A stretch of 17,769 nt of DNA, from the IMG/VR virus record IMGVR_UViG_2571042372_000007. One strand, given 5' to 3'. Position numbers and translations under genes: made by a program. Shown one piece after another: positions 1,611-17,769 of this stretch (position 1 is its first letter; every line of letters begins with the position of its first letter). The notes below the pieces were generated by a model. It was given only the letters and a program-made list of their open reading frames with translations, did no database searches and had not been told where the DNA came from. This DNA comes from a virus. Its lineage: Duplodnaviria; Heunggongvirae; Uroviricota; Caudoviricetes.

Positions 1611-2825
1611 GTGAAACTCAATGCCCGTCAAATAGACACTGCCAAGCCAAAAGAGAAGGCTTACAAGCTGGCTGATGGTGGTGGTCTGTATCTCTTGGTA
1701 AAACCTAGTGGAGGAAAATATTGGCGCTTCAAGTATCGTGTAGCTGGTAAAGAGAAGCTGTTAGCACTAGGTGTGTATCCTGAAGTTACCTTGGCTGATG
1801 CTCGTGCAAAACGTGAAGAAGCTAAAAGGGGTATCGCTGGGGGTATCGATCCGATGGAAGCGAAACGAGAGGAAAAGATTGCCCGGGAAACGCAGTTAAA
1901 CAACACCTTCAAAGATATTGCCCTTGAGTGGCACAGCAGCAAATTAAAAAAATGGTCTGCTGGTTATGCTTCAGACATCCTCGAAGCCTTCAACAAAGAT
2001 GTGTTCCCTTACATTGGCAAAAAACCAATCGCCGAAATCAAACCACTTGAACTGCTGAATGTGCTGCGGCGCATCGAGGGGCGCGGTGCTACCGAAAAAG
2101 CCAAAAAAGTGAGGCAGCGATGTGGGGAAGTTTTCCGCTATGCAATTGTCACTGGACGTGCTGAGTATAACCCTGCACCGGATCTCACCAGCGCGATGCA
2201 AGGTCATGAATCTAATCATTATCCTTTCCTCACAGCCAAAGAATTACCTGATTTTTTCAAGGCATTGTCCAGTTACTCAGGAAGTGCATTGGTTGTTATG
2301 GCGGCTCGTTTACTGATTATCACCGGTTTGCGGACTGGCGAACTGCGCGGTGCATTATGGGATGAAATCGATCTCAACAAGGCTATCTGGGAGATACCTG
2401 CTTCACGGATGAAAATGCGTCGCCCTCATGTAGTGCCTTTGTCTGAGCAGGCTCTTTCGCTTATTGGGCAGATTAAAGAACTAACTGGCAATTATCCGCT
2501 TATGTTTCCCGGCCGTAATGATCCAAGGAAAACAATGAGCGAGGCTAGCATAAACCAAGTATTTAAACGCATCGGCTATAACGGAAAGGTTACTGGTCAT
2601 GGCTTCCGGCACACTATGAGCACCATTTTGCATGAGCAGGGCTATAACACCGCGTGGATAGAGACACAGCTTGCGCACGTCGATAAAAACTCAATTCGTG
2701 GCACATACAACCATGCGCAATATCTGGATGGGCGGCGGGAAATGCTTCAGTGGTACGCTGATTATATGGATTCGCTCGAGCATGGCGGAAATGTGGTGCA
2801 TGGTGAGTTCGGAAAATGCGGGTGA
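1611..2825 (+). CDS. int: P4-family tyrosine integrase (site-specific recombinase), GTG start
   Basis: 404-aa ORF; N-terminus MKLNARQIDTAKPKEKAYKLADGGGLYLLVKPSGGKYWRFKYR is the typical P4-integrase arm-binding region; C-terminal catalytic region with HGFRHT and a downstream conserved Tyr; directly adjacent to a tRNA gene. Confidence 0.9.
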   Translation: MKLNARQIDTAKPKEKAYKLADGGGLYLLVKPSGGKYWRFKYRVAGKEKLLALGVYPEVTLADARAKREEAKRGIAGGIDPMEAKREEKIARETQLNNTFKDIALEWHSSKLKKWSAGYASDILEAFNKDVFPYIGKKPIAEIKPLELLNVLRRIEGRGATEKAKKVRQRCGEVFRYAIVTGRAEYNPAPDLTSAMQGHESNHYPFLTAKELPDFFKALSSYSGSALVVMAARLLIITGLRTGELRGALWDEIDLNKAIWEIPASRMKMRRPHVVPLSEQALSLIGQIKELTGNYPLMFPGRNDPRKTMSEASINQVFKRIGYNGKVTGHGFRHTMSTILHEQGYNTAWIETQLAHVDKNSIRGTYNHAQYLDGRREMLQWYADYMDSLEHGGNVVHGEFGKCG

Positions 2826-3945: not shown

Positions 3946-4143
3946 ATGTCAAATACGCTTATTCGTTTAACAGAAGTTCAGCGTAGAACTGGATATAGCA
4001 AGGCATGGATTTATCGCCTTATGGGGCAAGGTAAATTTCCTGCATCAGTTAAAATTGGCTCGCGAGCTATTGCTTTCGTTGAGAGTGAAATTGACGAGTG
4101 GATTAATCAGCGTATTGCGGAATCACGCGGAACAGCTACCTGA
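3946..4143 (+). CDS. alpA: AlpA-family transcriptional regulator (phage excisionase/activator-like HTH)
   Basis: 65-aa protein LIRLTEVQRRTGYSKAWIYRLMGQGKFPASVKIGSRAIAFVESEIDEWINQR matches the AlpA/Phage_AlpA pattern (HTH, then GxR...W.ESEIDEWI). Confidence 0.85.
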   Translation: MSNTLIRLTEVQRRTGYSKAWIYRLMGQGKFPASVKIGSRAIAFVESEIDEWINQRIAESRGTAT

Positions 4144-4220: not shown

Positions 4221-5021
4221 ATGAAATTTCCAAAAACGCCCGTACAGGGGCGGGGCTTCGTTCGGCCTGAAAACCAGAATCTGCAAAATTTCGGCGAAAT
4301 TATCCCGATTATTTCCGGCGTTATTGGCGGGAGTGAAACCACTATTGTTAGCGCCAGAGCGTTACATAAGGCGTTAGGTGTAGGGCGCGTTTTCCGTTCG
4401 TGGATCAAGGGGCGCATTGAAGAATATGGGTTCACGGAAGGCGTGGATTATGAGGTTGTTGAATATTTGAGCCGACCCGATCCGGTGAGCGCAAAATCTC
4501 GCCAGCAAACCGCTCTTGAGTACATCATCACAGTGAACATGGCGAAAGAACTGGCGATGGTCGAACGTACCGAACAGGGCCGCGCCGTTCGCCAGTACTT
4601 TATCAAATGCGAGGAGGAGCTACACAAGGTTGCGCCTGTTCGTTCCGCAGCGTTACGCCGGGAACTGAAAGCCCGTATCACAGTTGCCAGCTACTTTAAG
4701 CCAATGTGTGCCGCGCTGGAGGCGTACCGGGCTGAACTGGGTAAAAACACACTCCAGCACCACTACACCACGGAAGCGAACATGCTGGCGCGTATCGTGC
4801 TGGGTGGCATGACTGCAAAACAGTGGGCACTGGCGAACGGCATTACAGGCGAACCACGCGACCACATGAGCACGTTGCAGCTTGAGCACCTTTCTTACCT
4901 TGAGCAGAGCAATATCACGCTGATTGAGTTAGGCCAGGACTACCACCAGCGGAAGGCTGAATTAATTCGTCTTTCGCAGCGTTGGTTAGCCCGTCGTATG
5001 GAGGAAAACAGCCATGTGTAA
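4221..5021 (+). CDS. Phage antirepressor-family protein (ORF6N/Ant-like N-terminal domain)
   Basis: SD CAGGAG before ATG; motif SARALHKALGVGRVFRSWIKGRIEEYGFTEGVDYEV resembles the antirepressor N-terminal domain signature (LH..LGV...F..WI..RI..YGF.EG.DY). Assigned from memory of the family pattern. Confidence 0.55.
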   Translation: MKFPKTPVQGRGFVRPENQNLQNFGEIIPIISGVIGGSETTIVSARALHKALGVGRVFRSWIKGRIEEYGFTEGVDYEVVEYLSRPDPVSAKSRQQTALEYIITVNMAKELAMVERTEQGRAVRQYFIKCEEELHKVAPVRSAALRRELKARITVASYFKPMCAALEAYRAELGKNTLQHHYTTEANMLARIVLGGMTAKQWALANGITGEPRDHMSTLQLEHLSYLEQSNITLIELGQDYHQRKAELIRLSQRWLARRMEENSHV

Positions 5022-5480
5022 CGCTCTGACCGTTACAAAAAGAGAAAGCGCCCCGTTGCCGGAGCGCCTTTGTGAACGAATAGCCTACTGCGCCATATTG
5101 CTTACTGTCTACGAGGCAGATTATAGCGTTGTGGTCGCACAGAGTGAAGGCGCTGATCACCGTTACTACAGCACGCCAGAAATGCAGAATATTTTGCTGC
5201 AAAATGTCGTTGGTCACACTGTCCGGAAAGCAAAAAATTTTGCTGGTGGCGCGACTGATGCGATTTTGTCAGGTCGCCAGGTGCTGATCAATCTGATGTC
5301 TGATTTCGTTCTGGATAAAACAAAGGCGACCGCAGAGGGCCGCCAGTGGGAAAGCTACATACTTGAACGCATCGCCAACAATGCCAGATTTGCGGCTGGT
5401 GGGCAATGTGTCAGCTTTGCACCAATGACTCTATGTTTAACTGAGGGTCATTATGGTGAATATGCTGGCTTGCTGGTGGG
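5014..5480 (+). other. ORF translationally coupled to the antirepressor gene (ATGTGTAA overlap); 3' end undefined
   Basis: Starts MCNALTVTKRES at the same CATGTGTAA junction type seen at 6593, which argues the start is real. The frame has no stop until 6600 and turns Cys/Ser-rich and junk-like from about residue 155. End coordinate is approximate. Confidence 0.3.
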
Positions 5481-5738
5481 CTATTCCTGCTCTTTAACAT
5501 TGCCATGCCGCGATGTTTTCCAGGTATGCGACCCCATTTTTGTGTGCCTGTACTCTTTAAGGAATTTCTCAAGGACAAACGCACAGGGCGCGAATCTGTC
5601 TGACTCATGCTCGTACGCTATCTTTCTGCGCTGTCTTTTCCGTGCCGGTGATGGTGTATTGGTTGATTCTTTGTTGGTCATGGCGCTGCCCTGTAAAATA
5701 ATGCACCGTAGTTCCTCACACCACGGCACCTATAGTGG

Positions 5739-6044
5739 TTATTCCTGCTCTTTAGCTTTGCGCCGCTGGAGTTCTTCACGCGCGACGGTGACGAGTTGCC
5801 CGATTTCCTCGGCAGCTTTGACTCCGATTTTTTCCACCTGCGCTAGGGCATCGAGCGAAGAAACCAGGGGATTTTCTCCGCTTCCTTCTGCCTGGCGGCG
5901 GGCGATTTCACCGCGAACGGCTGTAATCACGAAAGCGGCTATTGTTTCCCCTTCCGTTTTCGAATTTTCCATTTCCTCGATTACATCATGGGGGAAGCGG
6001 ATATTTTTCATTTGCGATCTGCTGTTGATGTTTCCTGTTGCCAT
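5739..6044 (-). CDS. Small protein, possible ribbon-helix-helix-type regulator, divergent from the replication operon
   Basis: 101-aa minus-strand ORF MATGNINSRSQMKNIRFPHDVIEEMENSKTEGETIAAFVITAVRGEIARRQ; an N-terminal beta-strand-like segment followed by helices looks RHH-like. Weak SD; start may instead be the internal MKNIRF. Confidence 0.45.
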   Translation of the reverse strand: MATGNINSRSQMKNIRFPHDVIEEMENSKTEGETIAAFVITAVRGEIARRQAEGSGENPLVSSLDALAQVEKIGVKAAEEIGQLVTVAREELQRRKAKEQE

Positions 6045-6135
6045 CAGAATGTCCGGTTATTTTGAGGTGTGTACACATTACACCAAAAGGTGTGTTGATA
6101 AAACACTTGACACTGTAGCACACTTAAATTTAATT

Positions 6136-6168
6136 TGTATATACACCAATTGTTGTGGTGTATATACA
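6136..6168. promoter_or_regulatory. 13-bp perfect inverted repeat (TGTATATACACCA N7 TGGTGTATATACA) in the divergent intergenic region
   Basis: Arms at 6136-6148 and 6156-6168 are exact reverse complements; located between the minus-strand gene (ends 6044) and the plus-strand operon start (6235). Additional GTGT/ACAC dyads at 6065-6090. Confidence 0.6.
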
Positions 6169-6234
6169 GCAACGCCCCGCAGTGGTGGCACACATGCAGG
6201 GCGTCTAACCAAACCGTTAAACGAGGTAACGATT

Positions 6235-6600
6235 ATGGCTGGAACACAGCATACCCAAACTCACCCTAAATTTATATACACCTTCCTGGCGGTGCACCGT
6301 GATTGCATTGCTGACGGTAAAAACACTGTACACGTAGCCGCCGATACGCTGGTTGATGCCTGCGAGATGCTCAATGACATGGGCTATATCTCGGCAACAT
6401 GGAAAGGGCGCGAAGAAAACACGCTGTTTATTCAGAAATGCGAAAACAATTTTATCTGGCGTTTTATCGCCCTGAGTACGGCACAACCGCGCGTGATTCA
6501 CATCGAGGCCACCAGCGAACAGGAAGCACGCCAGCAATCTCCTGATGGCTGCGTGATGGTATTCGCTGCCCGTATTCGCCAGGAGGTGGAGCATGTGTAA
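6235..6600 (+). CDS. Hypothetical protein, 121 aa (first gene of the replication operon)
   Basis: ATG 6235 preceded by SD-like GAGGTAACG; the protein-like tail of the 528-aa track ORF (MAGTQHTQTHPKFIYTFLAVHRDC...); stop overlaps the next gene start (ATGTGTAA). Confidence 0.55.
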   Translation: MAGTQHTQTHPKFIYTFLAVHRDCIADGKNTVHVAADTLVDACEMLNDMGYISATWKGREENTLFIQKCENNFIWRFIALSTAQPRVIHIEATSEQEARQQSPDGCVMVFAARIRQEVEHV

Positions 6601-7598: not shown

Positions 7599-7889
7599 AT
7601 GAAAAAGAAATATTCTGGCTTTACTGCCAGCGGCCTCTCTCGGCCTGAAATCCGCCCCGGTGATATTTTCCGGGACACCAGACGCGGGGGACGGGTGGTT
7701 ATTCGTCACGTTACGCCAGGCAATATCACCTACCGCCGTGAGGCTTACGAATATGACTGCGTAATGCCGCGCCGTCAGTTTGAGCGTGATTTTATTCTGG
7801 TGGAAAACAAACAACAGGCAGTGGCGAGACGTGCAGCCACGAATATTAAAAAAATCCGGGCAATGTTGGTTGCGGGAGGTAAGAAGTGA
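7599..7889 (+). CDS. Hypothetical basic protein, 96 aa
   Basis: ORF immediately upstream of, and overlapping (GTGA), the primase/helicase gene start; Arg/Lys-rich. Confidence 0.5.
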   Translation: MKKKYSGFTASGLSRPEIRPGDIFRDTRRGGRVVIRHVTPGNITYRREAYEYDCVMPRRQFERDFILVENKQQAVARRAATNIKKIRAMLVAGGKK

Positions 7890-9691
7890 AAAACGCACCG
7901 AATTTAAAATATCAGCCGAAGGATAAATTCACCGAGGTAATCATTTTTGCCGGGACGGATGCTTACGCCCATGCTCAACACTGGATTGAAAGCGAAGGAC
8001 GAAAACACGGCGATAACGTGCCTCCTGTTTACCTGGGGCCAAAGCAACTGGCAGACCTGGCGAATATCCGCATTGTCGACGATGAACGCCGCTTTGCGCG
8101 TGTCTATCTCGCGGGGGAGATAGAGCCAATCCAGATCAATGCTATTGCTGAAAAGCTGGCGCTGGCTGGTGTACAGGACGCGAAATTATACAAAGGTATC
8201 ACCGACCGGGAGCCGGAAAACTGGCGCGACTACCTGCAACGGATCCGCGAACAGGCAGAGAGTGGGGAAGTTTCAGCGATGAAATTAGCCACAAAAAATA
8301 TTGACCTATCCAGGCCAGCACTAAATCAGATGGGAGCCAGCCAGAGAGGGGAAGTGTTACTTGAATATTATGGAAGAGCACTGGCTATAAATGATGATTC
8401 TGATGTAGTTCACCATTACAACGGAATTGTCTGGGTGCCTGTATCTGATAAGGAACTCCAGCGGTCTATGGCGAAGATTTTTATTGATGCTGGAATCAGT
8501 TATTCGCAAAACGCCATTAAATTTGCCGTAGACACAATGAAATTGAGCCTGCCTGTTATGGGCGGGGCAGACAGGAATCTTATTGGATTCAGTAACGGGG
8601 TATTTGATACCCGGACGGGAAATTTTCGGGAGCATAACAAAAATGACTGGTTGTTAAATGCCAGTGAATTACCGTTCAGCCCACCAGCAGAGGGGGAAAC
8701 GCTGGCAACACATGCGCCGAATTTCTGGAAGTGGCTGCGTCGTTCGGTGGCAGATAATGATCGTAAAGCTGATCGCGTACTGGCGGCATTATTCATGGTA
8801 CTGGCGAACCGGTACGACTGGCAGTTATTCCTTGAGGTAACAGGCCCAGGCGGAAGCGGTAAAAGTGTGATGGCTGAGATTTGTACCATGCTGGCGGGTA
8901 AGGCCAACACAGTATCGGCAAGCATGAAGGCTCTGGAAGACGCAAGGGAACGCGCGTTAGTAGTTGGCTTTTCGCTGATTATCATGCCGGATATGACTCG
9001 CTACGCTGGCGATGGTGCAGGAATTAAGGCAATTACTGGCGGCGACAAGGTGGCAATTGATCCGAAACATAAAGCCCCCTACTCCACACGTATTCCGGCA
9101 GTAGTGCTTGCGGTAAACAATAACGCCATGTCATTCAGTGACCGAAGCGGGGGGATCTCGCGTCGTAGGGTGATATTTAATTTCTCTGAGGTCGTACCGG
9201 AGAACGAACGCGATCCCATGCTGGCGGAAAAGATAGAAGGCGAACTGGCGGTAGTGATTCGCCATTTGCTAACACGATTTACCGACCAGGACGAAGCTAA
9301 AAGACTACTTTATGAGCAGCAAAAATCAGAAGAAGCGCTGTTGATAAAGCGCGAAGGTGATTCACTGGTGGACTTTTGCGGCTATCTGATGTCGTTGGTT
9401 AAATGTGAAGGAATGATGGTGGGCAATGCGGAAATAGTGCCATTTAGCCCGAGGCGATACCTGTATCATGCTTATTTAGCCTATATGTCAGCGCATGGCC
9501 TGGGAAAACCAGTATCACTGACACGCTTTGGTACTGATATGCCAGGAGCTATGGCGGAATACGGAAAGGAGTATAAGCGGGCTAAATGCACTAAAGGCCC
9601 GGATAAAGGGCGAGTGATAACAAATGTTCTGTTAGATGATGATGCTGATGGCTGGTTGCCAGCAGCTACAGGGATTAACGACAGAACATAA
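7886..9691 (+). CDS. Replication protein: P4-alpha-like primase/helicase C-terminal region (D5_N-like plus SF3 helicase)
   Basis: 601-aa ORF with Walker A VTGPGGSGKS and a downstream Walker-B-like acidic stretch (LIIMPD), typical of the phage/plasmid primase P4-family C-terminal domain; followed by an iteron-rich origin-like region. Confidence 0.85.
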   Translation: MKNAPNLKYQPKDKFTEVIIFAGTDAYAHAQHWIESEGRKHGDNVPPVYLGPKQLADLANIRIVDDERRFARVYLAGEIEPIQINAIAEKLALAGVQDAKLYKGITDREPENWRDYLQRIREQAESGEVSAMKLATKNIDLSRPALNQMGASQRGEVLLEYYGRALAINDDSDVVHHYNGIVWVPVSDKELQRSMAKIFIDAGISYSQNAIKFAVDTMKLSLPVMGGADRNLIGFSNGVFDTRTGNFREHNKNDWLLNASELPFSPPAEGETLATHAPNFWKWLRRSVADNDRKADRVLAALFMVLANRYDWQLFLEVTGPGGSGKSVMAEICTMLAGKANTVSASMKALEDARERALVVGFSLIIMPDMTRYAGDGAGIKAITGGDKVAIDPKHKAPYSTRIPAVVLAVNNNAMSFSDRSGGISRRRVIFNFSEVVPENERDPMLAEKIEGELAVVIRHLLTRFTDQDEAKRLLYEQQKSEEALLIKREGDSLVDFCGYLMSLVKCEGMMVGNAEIVPFSPRRYLYHAYLAYMSAHGLGKPVSLTRFGTDMPGAMAEYGKEYKRAKCTKGPDKGRVITNVLLDDDADGWLPAATGINDRT

Positions 9692-9718
9692 TACGAAATT
9701 TATAAGCTGAAACGTAAA

Positions 9719-9918
9719 GGTAGACGGTTGGTAGACAGATTCACTTAACCCTCTACCAACCATCTACCAATTAATATTTTGAATTATAAAGATATTTTCA
9801 ATGTGGTAGAGAGGTAGACAGTTATTTCTATATTCCTAAACCACGGGGGGTATATAAAAAACAGATAGTTAAGGGGGCATTTTTTAAATTTCTCTTTTAA
9901 CTGTCTACACTGTCTACC
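9719..9918. repeat. Iteron cluster (GGTAGAC/GGTAGAG, 8 copies in both orientations) flanking an AT-rich spacer: candidate replication origin
   Basis: GGTAGAC at 9719 and 9730; inverted CTCTACC 9751 and TCTACC 9763; GGTAGAG 9805 and GGTAGAC 9813; inverted GTCTAC 9903 and TGTCTACC 9911. AT-rich stretch TTAATATTTTGAATTATAAAGATATTTTCAAT between the pairs. Confidence 0.65.
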
Positions 9919-9998
9919 ATTTAGTAAAAATCATTAATTATCAATGAACCGCCCCGGGAATCCTGGAGACTAAACTTCCTGAGAAAGAGGTAAACAGG

Positions 9999-10325
9999 AT
10001 GACTAAAAATACTCGTTTTTCCCCCGAAGTCCGTCAACGGGCAGTCCGTATGGTTCTGGAAAGTCAGAGCGAATATGACTCACAATGGGCGACAATTTGT
10101 TCCATTGCTCCAAAGATTGGCTGTACGCCGGAGACTCTGCGTGTCTGGGTTCGCCAGCATGAGCGGGATACCGGGGGCGGTGATGGAGGGCTCACCACCG
10201 CTGAACGTCAGCGTCTGAAAGAGCTGGAACGTGAAAATCGTGAACTGCGCCGCAGTAACGATATCCTTCGCCAGGCTTCCGCTTATTTTGCGAAGGCGGA
10301 GTTCGACCGCCTCTGGAAAAAATGA
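9999..10325 (+). CDS. IS3-family transposase OrfA (HTH and leucine-zipper region)
   Basis: 108 aa, [55 protein letters not shown]...[30 protein letters not shown]. Confidence 0.85.
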
Positions 10326-11212
10326 TGCCACTGCTGGATAAGCTGCGTGAGCAGTACGGGGTCGGACCGCTATGCAGCGAACTGCATATTGCCCCGTCAA
10401 CGTATTACCACTGTCAGCAACAGCGACATCATCCGGATAAACGCAGTGCCCGTGCGCAGCGCGATGACTGGCTGAAGAAAGAGATACAGCGCGTATACGA
10501 TGAAAATCACAAGGTATACGGTGTGCGTAAAGTCTGGCGTCAGTTGTTACGGGAAGGTATCAGAGTGGCCAGATGCACTGTGGCACGTCTCATGGCGGTT
10601 ATGGGACTTGCCGGTGTTCTCCGGGGTAAAAAGGTCCGTACGACCATCAGCCGGAAAGCCGTTGCCGCAGGCGACCGCGTAAACCGTCAGTTCGTGGCAG
10701 AACGACCTGACCAGCTGTGGGTGGCTGATTTTACTTACGTCAGCACATGGCGGGGCTTCGTCTATGTGGCGTTCATCATTGATGTGTTTGCCGGATACAT
10801 CGTGGGGTGGCGGGTCTCATCGTCCATGGAAACGACATTCGTGCTGGATGCACTGGAGCAGGCGTTATGGGCCCGTCGACCGTCCGGCACGGTCCATCAC
10901 AGTGATAAAGGTTCTCAGTATGTATCGCTGGCCTACACACAGCGGCTTAAGGAAGCCGGATTACTGGCATCAACAGGAAGTACAGGCGACTCGTATGACA
11001 ACGCGATGGCGGAGAGCATCAATGGTCTTTACAAAGCGGAGGTAATACACCGTAAGAGCTGGAAAAACCGTGCAGAAGTGGAACTGGCCACACTCACGTG
11101 GGTGGACTGGTATAACAATCGACGATTGCTGGAAAGGCTGGGCCATACTCCTCCGGCAGAAGCAGAAAAAGCTTATTATGCTTCCATCGGAAACGATGAT
11201 CTGGCAGCCTGA
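10322..11212 (+). CDS. IS3-family transposase OrfB (DDE catalytic domain), expressed as OrfAB by -1 frameshift
   Basis: 296 aa; overlaps orfA by ATGA; DDE-type integrase core (WVADFTYV..., [10 protein letters not shown]..., YDNAMAES...) characteristic of IS3 transposases. Confidence 0.85.
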
Positions 11213-11254
11213 GTTCACAGATAAAACACTCTCCAGGAAACCCGGGGCGGTTCA

Positions 11255-12119
11255 TGTTGTATCTGGAGTAAAACCTGATCCTGAGCTTGCTGCTTCAATT
11301 AAAACTGAAATTGACAGCTTAGATGCAAAAATCAACGAAGCCAAAGCTGATGCTCGTCAGTATAGTGGTGGTCTGATAAAGGTACTAAAATTATCTACTG
11401 TTGCCACTGAAGAGCAGACTATGGCAATGTTGCAGCAAAAGTACCTCACAGCCAAGTATGGCCTCGCTGAAGTTAAGCTGGCATCAGTACAAGATAATGA
11501 CGCAAAAAACAGTACTGAAACGGAAGTAACAGCCAAAAATTCCCAAGATCAACTTCCTTTACTCCCGCCAGCGGATGGTCCGTTTGGCTTAGAAGCCGGT
11601 CTTACACAGAAAAACATCGAAGATATGATCGGTGCTAAGCTCAAGCCACTACCAGACAGTGTGAATCTGTATACTTCTGATAAATTACCGAAGCAAAACG
11701 CAGATTTTGAAATGTATGGTTTGTTGATCTCCCCGAAAGCTGGTTTATGTCAAATACGGGCTTTAGGAAAAAATATTGATACTGATAGCTATGGATTGGC
11801 TCTTAAATCCAAGTTTGAAGAATTGAGTAATTCTTTAAGTTCTCTGTATGGAAAGGCTGATACTACAGACTTTTTGCTGGCTGGTTCAATTTGGAAAGAT
11901 CCTCAGGACTGGATGAGGGGGCTAAACAAAAAAGAACGCTTCTTATCTGCCACATGGAAGGGAACAAAAGAAATACCATTAAAAAACAATATTGATACTA
12001 TCTCTATTGAGGCCAGAGCGAACAATTCCACTCAGGGATATGTCTATCTGCAGTACTCATTTACAAATGACGAAATTTGTCAGGCAGAAATTGAAGGGGC
12101 GAAAAAAAGTTCCCTTTAA
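11255..12119 (+). pseudogene. Hypothetical protein, apparently 5'-truncated at the IS629-like right end (possible internal restart at ATG 11421)
   Basis: Reading frame is continuous from inside the IS (track ORF 11070..12119) with no start codon immediately after the IS end; first in-frame ATG after the IS is 11421. Followed by a strong terminator. Confidence 0.45.
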
Positions 12120-12130
12120 ACAATCCGTGC

Positions 12131-12160
12131 AAAGCCCCTTAGTAAGGGGCTTTTATATAT
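12131..12160 (+). terminator. Rho-independent terminator
   Basis: AAAGCCCCTTAGTAAGGGGCTTTTATATATT: GC stem GCCCC/GGGGC, 7-nt loop, T-rich tail, 12 bp after the stop at 12119. Confidence 0.65.
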
Positions 12161-13221: not shown

Positions 13222-13320
13222 ATCAGTAAGGGGCGGTTATTGCCCCTTTCCTCCATACCCACAACGCATTCCCTTTCCGCATGAAATTATTTTTTATCGT
13301 ATATGCATGAGGTGAGCTAC

Positions 13321-13848
13321 ATGTTGATGAGTAAAGCCGAATACGCCAAATACAAAGGCGTAAGCCGCCAGACAGTTTACGACTGGCTCGAGAAAGGCGA
13401 AGTGGTCATGTCCGGTAAAAAAATTGATGTGGAAGCGACAGAGCAGCGGAACAGCCCACCAGCACAGGGGAAAGACACCATTTCTGAAATGTGGCCAGAA
13501 AGAACGCTGGAAATGACATGGGGCGAGTTCTGGAAAGCAGTTAAGGCCAGAGACGGTAAAATTCCTGCGCCAGTAACGGACGAGGGCATACAGCAGCGTG
13601 TGCTGTATGCAGCCGGGGAATTAGGCTGGGAAGTGCACTTTCTTGATGATGGTGCTATCTGTCTTGAGGATGATGAAGGGCAGCATTACTTTGAAAAATA
13701 CAATTTGCGAGGTAATGCCAGGCTGGCAATTCGTATGCTGCGTTGCGAACTCTGCTATGTTGCCAGCGATTGTCCCGATGAACAGGACACATGGAGTGAG
13801 GCAGGACTAAACGCCTTGGCTGAATGGGAAAAATCAGGCCATCAATGA
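13321..13848 (+). CDS. HTH-domain DNA-binding protein, about 176 aa
   Basis: SD GAGGTG 6 nt before ATG 13321; N-terminus MSKAEYAKYKGVSRQTVYDWLEKGEV is a canonical helix-turn-helix; lies directly upstream of the GTGTCAA repeat array. Confidence 0.6.
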   Translation: MLMSKAEYAKYKGVSRQTVYDWLEKGEVVMSGKKIDVEATEQRNSPPAQGKDTISEMWPERTLEMTWGEFWKAVKARDGKIPAPVTDEGIQQRVLYAAGELGWEVHFLDDGAICLEDDEGQHYFEKYNLRGNARLAIRMLRCELCYVASDCPDEQDTWSEAGLNALAEWEKSGHQ

Positions 13849-14670: not shown

Positions 14671-15897
14671 ATGATTGCAGGCGCGAAAAGAGGGAGAAAC
14701 GAACGCAAGGGGCTTCACTCTTGGCATCCATACTATGCGGGCTATTCAGAGTCATTTGTGGCTTCTGTTTTGCAGGCTGAAGGAGTTAAGTCGTCCGCTA
14801 CCGTTCTTGATCCTTGGATGGGAAGCGGTACCACTGGTATAGTTTGTCAAAAGCAAACCATAAAGTGTATTGGAGCAGATATTAATCCTGTAATGAGCTA
14901 TTTTGCTGCAGCCAAAAGTAGGGATAATATTTCAGCGCTGGATTATACCGGAGAGCAACTCCTGGAAAGGATACTGCTTTGCTTTAGAAAAAAAACAAAA
15001 GATATAACTGAGTCATCGAAGGGCTATCCACTTATTGAACAGTTACAAAAGTTTTATAAATGTATCTGTGATCAGTTTATGGATAAAGGACAAAATGATA
15101 TCGTAAATCCTTTAAAAGCATTTTATTGCAGTGTTTTATTTTATACTGTTCGCAATGTCCTTGATGTTAGGTCAACTTCAAATCCTACATGGATTTCTAA
15201 AAAAGTAGACTTTAATAATAAATTTGATATTTGTTTTGAATATAATAAAAATTTTAAAATTATGCGTGAGCAGTTAAGTGAATATTATGGCAGCGCTAAT
15301 GGGGGGGCATGTTACTCGATTTTAAACGTGGATAGTAAAAAATTAAATATTAAAAGTAACACAATTGATCTTGTTATTACATCGCCACCGTATTTAACAC
15401 GAATAGACTATGCCGTTTCTACTCGTCTTGAGTTGGAAATAATTTTAGGGAGTGAGGGATATAAGTCTCTTAGAAAGGAAATGATGGGCACGACGACTGT
15501 GCCTAAAGTTGCGGATGAAATTAATAAAAAATGGGGGCCATTGTGTATGGATGTTTTGTCATCGGTAACATCGCATACATCAAGAGCATCTGGAAGTTAT
15601 TACCTTAAAAATAAAATTAGATATTTTTCTGATGCGTATGAGTCATTAATGGAAATCTTTAGAGTTTTAAAGGTAGGTTGCTCTGGTTATTTTGTAATAC
15701 AAAATTCATATTATAAGGAAATAGAGATTCCGCTTTATGATATTTATTGTGAAATGGCGCTTTCTATTGGGTTTTCAGAAGCGAAATGTGTGAGAGAAGA
15801 TCAAGTTAAAGCAATATTTGGACAAATAAATACCAAGTCAAAAAATTATATTAAAGATAAAGTTTATTTTGAAAAAATCATAAGGATAACAAAATGA
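14671..15897 (+). CDS. SAM-dependent methyltransferase (putative DNA N6-adenine/N4-cytosine MTase), motif I before motif IV
   Basis: 408 aa; AdoMet-binding motif DPWMGSGTTG (about 14809-14838) and catalytic SPPY (about 15384-15395) in the ITSPPYLTRIDY context; AT-rich; stop overlaps the start of the next gene (ATGA). Confidence 0.75.
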   Translation: MIAGAKRGRNERKGLHSWHPYYAGYSESFVASVLQAEGVKSSATVLDPWMGSGTTGIVCQKQTIKCIGADINPVMSYFAAAKSRDNISALDYTGEQLLERILLCFRKKTKDITESSKGYPLIEQLQKFYKCICDQFMDKGQNDIVNPLKAFYCSVLFYTVRNVLDVRSTSNPTWISKKVDFNNKFDICFEYNKNFKIMREQLSEYYGSANGGACYSILNVDSKKLNIKSNTIDLVITSPPYLTRIDYAVSTRLELEIILGSEGYKSLRKEMMGTTTVPKVADEINKKWGPLCMDVLSSVTSHTSRASGSYYLKNKIRYFSDAYESLMEIFRVLKVGCSGYFVIQNSYYKEIEIPLYDIYCEMALSIGFSEAKCVREDQVKAIFGQINTKSKNYIKDKVYFEKIIRITK

Positions 15898-17006
15898 ATG
15901 ACGTAACTAAATTGCTATCTCAGATAGATGAAAAAAGAGATGAGGTAGTAACTGATTCTTATACCATATCATGGCGTGAAGTAATTAATCTATATAAAGA
16001 AAATGAGATAACCATTTCTCCAGACTACCAAAGGCTTTTTCGTTGGGATAACGCAAGACAAAGCCAATTTATCGAGTCATTACTTTTAAATATACCTACG
16101 CCAACACTTTTTTTCTACATTGATAATAATGGTAAGCAGGAGGTTATCGATGGATTGCAACGTGTGAGTACTATAATTAGATTTTTTTCAGAGGATATTT
16201 TTAATAAGGAAGAAATAGATAATGCAAAGAAACAAAACTCTGTAAATGATGTCCGTAATCCAACTGTTCTTGATGATGTGCCTATAATTACAGAATTAAA
16301 TGGATGGACTGCAAAAGGATTGCCGGACAAAGTTAGCCGAACTATAAAAAATGCGCGAGTAAATGTTGTTATTTTGGAGCAAGAAACAAAACCTGAAACT
16401 AAATATAATGTTTTTAAACGACTGAATAGGTCTGGTGTTCGTTTGAGTGACCAGGAAATACGTAATTGCATGGCTAGATTAGCAGGGAATGAATTTGCAG
16501 ATCGCTTACGTAAGATGGCCGAAATTGATGGTATTGTTCAAGCTCTTGGAATAAATGAAGATGGCCAAAAATCTCAAGGTGTTGAGGAAGCTTTGCTACG
16601 AGTTATGGCATCTTTGACTTATGCGGATAAATTTAGCCATAGTGTAACTGACTTTTTGGATGAATTTATGTTCTACGCGGCAGAACATAATGTTATTGAT
16701 ATTAATTTTGAATTAAAAATAAAAAGAACTTTTGATTTGATAAATATTGCTGGTTTATCTGGTAAAGCATTTAAATTTAGAAAGGATGGTGCTCCAAGTG
16801 GCCCGTTTAGTACTAATTTATTAGATGTTGTTGCTGTTGGTATTTTTAGTAATGTAGATAATTTAACACCTGCTGAGGTGGCGAAAAGATTTGATTATTT
16901 AATGGATGGTGAGATCAAAGAATTAAGAGCTTGTACTGGTTCTGGATCTAATACTAAAGCCAAATTAGAGAAAAGAATCGCTCTTGGGAAGAAGGTGTTT
17001 GGATAA
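15894..17006 (+). CDS. DUF262 (ParB/Srx-like NTPase, GmrS-type N-terminal domain) protein
   Basis: 370 aa; signature SPDYQRLFRW (about 16017-16046), IDGLQR (about 16144-16161, canonical DGQQR) and FKRLNRSGVRLS; no recognisable fused nuclease (DUF1524/HNH) domain. Confidence 0.75.
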   Translation: MNDVTKLLSQIDEKRDEVVTDSYTISWREVINLYKENEITISPDYQRLFRWDNARQSQFIESLLLNIPTPTLFFYIDNNGKQEVIDGLQRVSTIIRFFSEDIFNKEEIDNAKKQNSVNDVRNPTVLDDVPIITELNGWTAKGLPDKVSRTIKNARVNVVILEQETKPETKYNVFKRLNRSGVRLSDQEIRNCMARLAGNEFADRLRKMAEIDGIVQALGINEDGQKSQGVEEALLRVMASLTYADKFSHSVTDFLDEFMFYAAEHNVIDINFELKIKRTFDLINIAGLSGKAFKFRKDGAPSGPFSTNLLDVVAVGIFSNVDNLTPAEVAKRFDYLMDGEIKELRACTGSGSNTKAKLEKRIALGKKVFG

Positions 17007-17007
17007 A

Positions 17008-17769
17008 ATGAGAATATCAGATTTCGATGATTTCAAGGTGATGTTGGAAAAGACGAAAAATGAAAGTCTTGGATTCCTTGAGAGCATAAAGTCTATTAAT
17101 GAGTTTATGTCGAGATCAGGTGATAAAGACAAGGAGGATATGTTTAGAATAATATCGGTCCCAATGATTTATTCTTCTTGGGAGGGTTTTTTTACTGAAA
17201 CAATGTCAGTTTGCTTAAATACATTGAAACTCTCAGATAGAGAGGCATTTAGATACTCTGCAGAAATTCGAGCACTTTGGTTGCAACGAGAACCATTTTA
17301 TAGCAAGTATGTAGATATGATAAAAAATATTTATGATGCTGACTCACACCGAAGCATTGTCCATAATGGCGCCCAAATAAAAAAGAAAGTTACGAAGGGG
17401 GCGTTTAAACTAACAAGTGAGGTAATTCAACACATTGACAGGTTTAATAAATCCACATTATCAGATTGCGATGTTTCTGAATTAGTTATGACATTTTCCA
17501 ATGTGAATGAAATGGTTGTCAAGGTGAATTTCGATGCTATAGGTTTGGATTATTCATCACTTGATTTATCGCAACTAGGTGAGGTTGTTGGCCTTAGAAA
17601 TTCTTTGGGACATGGGGAGTTTAAAAGTAGTGTTAACCCTAGGAAATTTAATTCAATAATTGTGTATGTGGAAAATCTGATCATCGATTTGAATCAATGT
17701 GCTATAACGTGGTTGGATAAATTAGAAGATGAAATAACTAAGCCTGAAGATAATGAGACTATTCAGTGA
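17008..17769 (+). CDS. Hypothetical protein with HEPN-like Rx4H motif (candidate RNase effector)
   Basis: Preferred start ATG 17008, one nt after the upstream stop (the track's 16984 is a TTG); 253 aa; C-terminal LRNSLGHGEF (about 17593-17622) fits the HEPN R-x4-6-H active-site motif; complete, stop at 17767-17769. Confidence 0.55.
   Translation: MRISDFDDFKVMLEKTKNESLGFLESIKSINEFMSRSGDKDKEDMFRIISVPMIYSSWEGFFTETMSVCLNTLKLSDREAFRYSAEIRALWLQREPFYSKYVDMIKNIYDADSHRSIVHNGAQIKKKVTKGAFKLTSEVIQHIDRFNKSTLSDCDVSELVMTFSNVNEMVVKVNFDAIGLDYSSLDLSQLGEVVGLRNSLGHGEFKSSVNPRKFNSIIVYVENLIIDLNQCAITWLDKLEDEITKPEDNETIQ

Follow-up and report, generated by a model that had tools for sequence, protein, structure and literature searches.

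The window, i.e., the whole stretch of 17,769 nucleotides analyzed here (IMG/VR virus record IMGVR_UViG_2571042372_000007), carries a genomic island of ~16.7 kb, which is located at thrW beside proA and extends, in window-equivalent coordinates, from 1446 to ~18,130. The tRNA-Thr gene thrW (1369–1444) adjoins the gene of a tyrosine integrase (1611–2825, plus strand; Pfam), and a 33-bp att repeat lies at 1413–1445. The integrase gene is followed by genes for an AlpA-family regulator/excisionase (3946–4143, plus strand; Pfam Phage_AlpA, E = 2.4e-19) and an AntA/AntB antirepressor, by Icd-like and DUF4222 genes, by the gene of a primase/helicase (7886–9691, plus strand), for which D5_N, DUF5906 and P4-family primase C-terminal domains were found with Pfam, PHROGs and NCBIfam, and finally by a field of iterons. 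In intact relatives the iterons are followed by genes for a ProQ/FinO-family protein, a PerC-family protein and a protein of 380 aa. The right part of the island consists of several small ORFs and, behind them, genes for a DNA methyltransferase (14671–15897), a DUF262/GmrSD_N protein (15894–17006; PADLOC NsnA, 1.2e-55, and a match to PD-T4-2_A) and a HEPN RiboL-PSP/MAE_28990 nuclease (16984 to the end of the window). These three genes (14671–17769) probably form an anti-phage defence cassette, which none of the eight related genomes has lost, not even those with the larger deletions described below. Scans of the island with Pfam and PHROGs revealed no phage structural or lysis genes. Judged from its integrase and att repeat, the AlpA-family regulator, the primase together with a putative origin, its size and this lack of structural genes, the host element can be read as a PICI-type phage satellite. 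In PICIs, genes for packaging redirection are usually found behind the replication module. An ORF of 181 aa (13303–13848) occupies this position in the present island and gave weak HTH_17/excisionase-like and small-terminase matches (phrog_57, 2.2e-06). A mechanically delimited ORF of 528 aa at 5014–6600 has no PGAP call. Its C-terminal part corresponds to the Icd-like gene (6235–6600), and two small minus-strand genes, one of the YlcI/YnfO family and one hypothetical, are located within it.

Among known elements, EcCIMP1, a PICI of E. coli MP1 (PMC11773190), is most closely related to the host element. Both share thrW as the integration site, with proA and the MarR-vat island on either side, an integrase of 97% identity, the AlpA and AntA/AntB antirepressor genes, the DUF4222 and Icd-like genes, a primase and an accessory gene of the PerC family. 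They differ in the type of primase, which belongs to the D5_N/P4 family in the window island and is of the TOPRIM-DUF927 type in EcCIMP1, and in their downstream cargo. Moreover, identity between the PerC proteins is as low as 49%, and the window has lost perC through the deletion. EcCIMP1 has been mobilized experimentally, and helper-driven induction, replication and packaging were shown for EcCIMP1 only (PMC11773190).

Between the iteron field and the remainder of the 380-aa gene the island is interrupted by an insertion sequence of 1,310 bp on the plus strand (9945–11254). It is bounded by a left (IRL, 9945–9969) and a right (IRR, 11230–11254) terminal inverted repeat, reads TGAACCGCCCCGGG...CCCGGGGCGGTTCA at its termini, and thus begins with TG and ends with CA. 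It contains orfA (9999–10325; 108 aa, HTH_Tnp_1 by Pfam), as given in the ORF list, and orfB (10322–11212; 296 aa), both on the plus strand. OrfB exhibits HTH_21, rve (DDE catalytic core) and rve_3 domains (Pfam) and matches the NCBIfam family of IS3-family transposases (transpos_IS3) with 1e-93. The two frames overlap in a 0/−1 arrangement, and an ALIL pseudoknot, the signal for a programmed −1 frameshift between orfA and orfB, is located at 10280–10396 (plus strand; Rfam RF01497, 120 bits with a gathering score of 50, E = 4.5e-32). A programmed frameshift is also marked by PGAP in an identical locus. Many E. coli genomes contain exact (100%) copies of the element. The copies in LC567824.1 and LC567828.1, which their depositors annotated as 'IS3 family IS629', match it with 99.5% identity over its full 1,310 bp, have the same end coordinates and are flanked by flush duplications of 4 bp (CTGG) and 3 bp (TAA). 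By its length, its termini, this near-identity and the frameshifted orfA/orfB pair, the element at 9945–11254 is an intact IS629. The earlier note, made from the sequence alone, had described an apparently intact IS of 1310 bp with both ends and orfA/orfB at exactly these coordinates, and the Pfam and Rfam matches as well as the annotated IS629 copies agree with it. Slightly longer ends (9944–11255) were also considered, as the inverted-repeat arms can be extended to 26 nt (92% complementarity). According to both the IS-free homologue and the annotated IS629, however, the additional A/T pair is a chance match.

In the window the IS is directly preceded by ...ATTATCAA and directly followed by TGTTGTATC.... 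No target-site duplication is present at these flanks, as CAA on the left faces TGT on the right (TCAA and TGTT, if 4 bp are considered) and every single position differs. Shifting the IS ends by one base does not yield a direct repeat either. These are the same flanks that had already been reported as differing, and as the IS ends are fixed independently by the annotated IS629 and by the IS-free homologue, the re-inspection of the true ends left no room for an overlooked repeat. The left junction (CAA, 9942–9944) lies inside the putative replication origin of the island. At the same point the IS-free island of APEC E123 (L001) continues from ...ATCAA directly into TGTATTAATGCGGTAGACC.... The right junction (TGT, 11255–11257) lies inside codon 93/94 of the 380-aa gene, where the island of APEC E123 reads ...AAAATTGATGT followed by TGTTGTATC.... 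TGT is found at both breakpoints of the IS-free sequence; as a clue to microhomology this is uninformative, as the two sites are separated by the IS.

The two flanks were used as separate queries in a search of 5,426 complete E. coli genomes. In every genome holding both flanks, these were spaced either by 1,310 bp, i.e., by the IS, or by 1,357 bp, and none of the 5,426 genomes joined them directly without the IS. The island of APEC E123 is identical to the window at 9345–9944 (600 bp left of the IS, 100%), then contains 1,357 extra bp and resumes at window position 11255, with the first 469 bp to the right being identical again. A 1,957-bp query spanning this segment was matched over at least 80% of its length by 82 complete E. 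coli genomes, and the 60 that were listed cover the whole query. As this alignment shows, IS629 sits exactly where the IS-free relatives still have 1,357 bp, and it is near certain that these were lost from the island by an IS-associated deletion. This deletion explains why the IS629 of the window lacks a target-site duplication.

The 1,357-bp segment of the IS-free relatives contains four additional GGTAGA iterons, arranged in two pairs with 11-bp spacing, a ProQ/FinO-family gene (176 aa; Pfam ProQ, 2.8e-22), a PerC-family gene (95 aa; Pfam PerC, 3.8e-32), and the upstream (promoter) region together with the first 278 nt (93 codons) of the 380-aa gene. The earlier note had suspected a loss of additional element genes from the region between the origin and the downstream gene, and this suspicion was well placed. 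In the relatives the iteron field is AT-rich (32% G+C) and reaches from the primase gene to the next gene. Four of its approximately 11 iterons are deleted in the window, where repeat search and iteron count leave an AT-rich region with seven GGTAGA/TCTACC repeats (9716–9925), which appears to be a truncated putative origin. In analogy to other origins with iterons, the replication of the island is probably disabled or weakened by the loss of a third of its iterons and of two regulators.

The ORF downstream of the IS is open from position 11070, i.e., from inside the IS, to 12119, and no in-frame ATG, GTG or TTG is found between the junction and 11421. In the IS-free relatives the native start lies 278 nt upstream of the junction and the product comprises 380 aa (L001, 5680–6822), which bears out the previous impression that this ORF had lost its 5′ end. 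A natural start at 11421 in homologues, which would have spoken for an undamaged gene, is not what the relatives show, as they encode the 380-aa form. As the IS-free relatives keep the first 93 codons within the 1,357 bp, the ORF ending at 12119 is, by this comparison, a 5′-truncated pseudogene remnant of the 380-aa gene, of which native codons 94–380 are left at 11255–12119 (plus strand). PGAP places its start at an in-frame ATG inside the IS (11178), resulting in a 313-aa 'hypothetical protein' (WP_101408903.1). Compared with the native gene, this entry is a fusion artefact, in which the remnant is read as one frame with the IS. The N-terminus of the 380-aa protein, MNKTLIATLVGIVMLTGC, resembles, when read by eye, a lipoprotein signal with a lipobox, and any product of the downstream ORF would consequently be devoid of an export signal. 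By eye, two repeats of ~55 aa can also be recognized in the 380-aa protein (...QQFSGGLIKNL... and ...RQYSGGLIKVL...), the first of which was removed by the deletion. Apart from a meaningless coiled-coil hit, the 380-aa product had no match in Pfam, PHROGs, NCBIfam, PADLOC or the PDB sequences. A consensus scan of 11000–11600 did not reveal any sigma-70 promoter reading out of the right end of the IS or located at the junction. A terminator-like hairpin follows the truncated gene at 12131–12153 (plus strand).

Both junctions of the window were found, in exact form, in six complete genomes (FDAARGOS_1300, FDAARGOS_1301, APEC E19019, B20123, AH20K059, and AHB12). Genomes holding the whole window exhibit only 1–3 differences over its 17,769 positions, with AHB12 being the closest match (one mismatch), and FDAARGOS_1300 is 100% identical over the IS region. 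Given so few differences over the whole window, the arrangement with both junctions is one inherited event. FDAARGOS_1300 (L005, NZ_CP069996.1, 893000–928000) additionally contains an extra island of ~12 kb and a second, inverted IS629 between two 33-bp repeats of the thrW 3′ end. This second IS629 is likewise without a target duplication (AACGAT to its left, ATCTCA to its right). As the extra island is present in FDAARGOS_1300 and absent from the window, thrW hosts tandem islands in some members of this clade.

Two further genomes share only one of the two junctions. FDAARGOS_1302 keeps the left junction and the intact IS, but lacks window positions 11255–12149 (895 bp), so that the right end of the IS abuts position 12150. 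It has thereby lost the rest of the truncated gene, and its deletion ends inside the terminator-like hairpin (12149/12150). MS8345, which is described as ST95 (PMC6180223), keeps the right junction and the intact IS, while the left end of the IS abuts DNA of a different island. Compared with the arrangement of FDAARGOS_1300, MS8345 lacks 12,166 bp that directly adjoin the IS on its left side and comprise the inverted IS629, the genes of integrase and primase and what was left of the iterons. Three deletions thus start exactly at a terminus of one and the same IS copy, and two of them are one-sided extensions which leave the opposite junction untouched. The neighboring vat autotransporter gene stands out in two of the genomes with both junctions. 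In APEC E19019 (L006, 19783–21310) it is truncated, and a further copy of IS629 lies ~45 bp away from the annotated end of the gene, and in AHB12 (L009, 19783–21310) it is annotated as incomplete, the missing end being outside the compared locus.

How the IS came to replace the segment can be explained in several ways. The earlier note had preferred an IS-mediated deletion or a recombination between two IS copies over a simple insertion. The deletion itself is borne out by the IS-free homologue, whereas the two routes would leave the same sequence behind. We favor, with slightly better than even confidence, an insertion of IS629 at one breakpoint which was followed by an adjacent deletion. In this scheme, a first, simple insertion into one breakpoint would have generated the usual 3–4-bp duplication. 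The transposase, perhaps with the help of IEE, would then have brought about an adjacent deletion from one IS terminus to a nearby site, leaving the IS intact and erasing one half of the duplication, and the same process could later have extended on either side in descendant genomes. The two IS-anchored deletions of the sister genomes favor such stepwise adjacent deletion. As the inverted IS629 of the FDAARGOS_1300 arrangement lies inside the span deleted in MS8345, the event in MS8345 did not arise from these two copies recombining with each other. By contrast, relatives carry other ISs in the 1,357-bp segment as simple insertions with duplications (9 bp for IS1A, 3 bp for IS3). Precedents for the proposed order exist within the IS3 family. 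All 14 duplication-less deletions of IS150 in the LTEE were multistep, with an insertion, an adjacent deletion and sometimes an extension (PMC11708052), and adjacent deletions by IS3 keep the IS (PMC8860574). For IS629 itself, four O157 genomes contained 47 copies, of which only 21 showed a duplication (PMC3271280), and IS629-adjacent deletions can be as short as a few nucleotides or exceed 40,000 (PMC9943667). Synthetic junction queries were used to search for both conceivable simple-insertion intermediates at a threshold of 80% coverage. An intermediate with the IS at the left site and the segment intact would read CCCGGGGCGGTTCA followed by CAATGTATTAATGCGGTAGACC, and one with the IS at the right site AAAATTGATGTTGT followed by TGAACCGCCCCGGG. 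At this coverage, none of the 5,426 complete E. coli genomes combined an undeleted 1,357-bp segment with IS629 at one of the breakpoints, and such an intermediate was also absent among the 60 listed genomes matching the 1,957-bp query. The order of events is for this reason one that we infer.

The lack of an intermediate bears on the competing explanations as well. One of them assumes two IS629 copies in direct orientation, one per breakpoint and each with its own duplication (CAA and TGT, respectively). RecA-dependent recombination between them would have deleted the 1,357 bp along with one copy and left a hybrid IS with mismatched flanks. We regard this as a possible, though rather less probable, course of events. 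Its predicted product, a left flank of CAA and a right flank of TGT, is exactly what is observed, yet an adjacent deletion would give the same sequence product. Also in its favor, the genomes carrying the arrangement are rich in IS629, with 13–23 matching places per chromosome compared with a median of 4 per genome. Furthermore, four alleles of the IS (reference, 124G, 767G, and 908T) occur at this one site (L002–L009) in islands that otherwise differ at no more than 3 of 17,769 positions. The 908T allele is confined to the two genomes with secondary deletions, FDAARGOS_1302 and MS8345, and equals the second IS copy of FDAARGOS_1300. Recombination of a second copy with the resident IS would be expected to leave such a match, which therefore constitutes a counterpoint to the adjacent-deletion route. 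The allele differences could, however, reflect gene conversion, IS-by-IS recombination, shared ancestry or an error of repeat polishing, and single-base differences between the ISs of different assemblies may be artefacts of the last kind. Neither a two-copy nor a single-copy intermediate was found in the 5,426 complete genomes, and the only nearby second copy that was observed is inverted and lies within the MS8345 deletion. In addition, the three deletions would require three extra insertions in the same orientation within 0.9–12 kb, each of which would then have had to recombine.

The failure to find an intermediate in the 5,426 complete genomes would also be accounted for by a single step, in which an IS629 circle integrated aberrantly, or into a pre-existing double-strand gap, so that its ends were joined to sites 1,357 bp apart and a duplication never existed. 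Duplication-less movements of this kind have been proposed by Ngan et al. for IS5 and IS481, but in the same study all 14 cases of the IS3-family member IS150 were multistep (PMC11708052). The one-sided extensions in FDAARGOS_1302 and MS8345 also show deletions arising from a resident copy, and we consider a single step to be very unlikely. That no deletion occurred at all, with the IS having simply inserted into a naturally shorter island, its duplication having decayed by point mutation and the downstream gene starting at 11421, has practically no probability left. This idea is refuted by the comparison with the IS-free homologues, in which flanks identical to those of the window (600 bp on the left, the first 469 bp on the right) enclose 1,357 bp. 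None of the genomes with both flanks joins them without an IS, the gap always amounting to 1,310 or 1,357 bp, and all three (or four) flank positions differ.

An insertion followed by adjacent deletion has its nearest counterpart in the IS629-adjacent deletions of enterohaemorrhagic E. coli O157 (type 'd' of Kusumoto et al., 2011; Ooka et al., 2009), which are summarized in PMC9330008 and PMC9943667. They involve the same IS (99.5% identical) and, like the deletion described here, start exactly at an IS terminus, leave the IS intact and exhibit no duplication, and the size of 1,357 bp falls within the reported range. Unlike in those reports, the host of the present deletion is an extraintestinal lineage. 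The IS150 deletions of the LTEE follow the same order of insertion, adjacent deletion and extension and likewise leave no duplication, and the nested deletions of FDAARGOS_1302 and MS8345 mirror the extension step. Yet, IS150 is a different IS of a different IS3 subgroup, and its intermediates were seen in frozen time points, whereas the first one is missing here. Intramolecular replicative deletions of the IS26, IS1 and Tn3 type are likewise one-ended from a terminus, retain the element and leave no duplication. These elements use target-primed replicative transposition, however, whereas members of the IS3 family transpose by a copy-out-paste-in mechanism via a circle (PMC9330008; bioRxiv 10.1101/2023.06.07.543989). 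Because of this difference, the chemistry of the deletion is not the same.

The finding as such is an ordinary and already described consequence of IS629 activity and does not involve any new principle. Its main value lies in the annotation, as it identifies a truncated gene, an artefactual fusion ORF and a decayed PICI. The island is better described as a PICI that is missing part of its origin and two regulators than as an intact satellite. Beyond that, the three nested deletions in near-identical genomes would provide a clean natural case of stepwise adjacent deletion by an IS3-family element outside of O157 and of laboratory evolution. Collectively, the deletions take away origin iterons, the two regulators of the ProQ/FinO and PerC families and, from MS8345, the entire half with integrase and primase, whereas the defence cassette is kept. 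It is conceivable, but in our view improbable, that this pattern reflects a selected immobilization of the phage satellite rather than neutral decay. If this were true, the IS would be the agent domesticating a mobile defence island.

Independent simple IS insertions were also observed in the homologous segment of relatives (L010, NZ_CP173591.1; L011, NZ_AP027764.1). In four genomes an IS1A is located 4 bp upstream of the ProQ/FinO-family gene and is flanked by its 9-bp duplication, and an IS3 with a 3-bp duplication lies inside perC. The segment of origin and regulators appears to be a repeated target of ISs.
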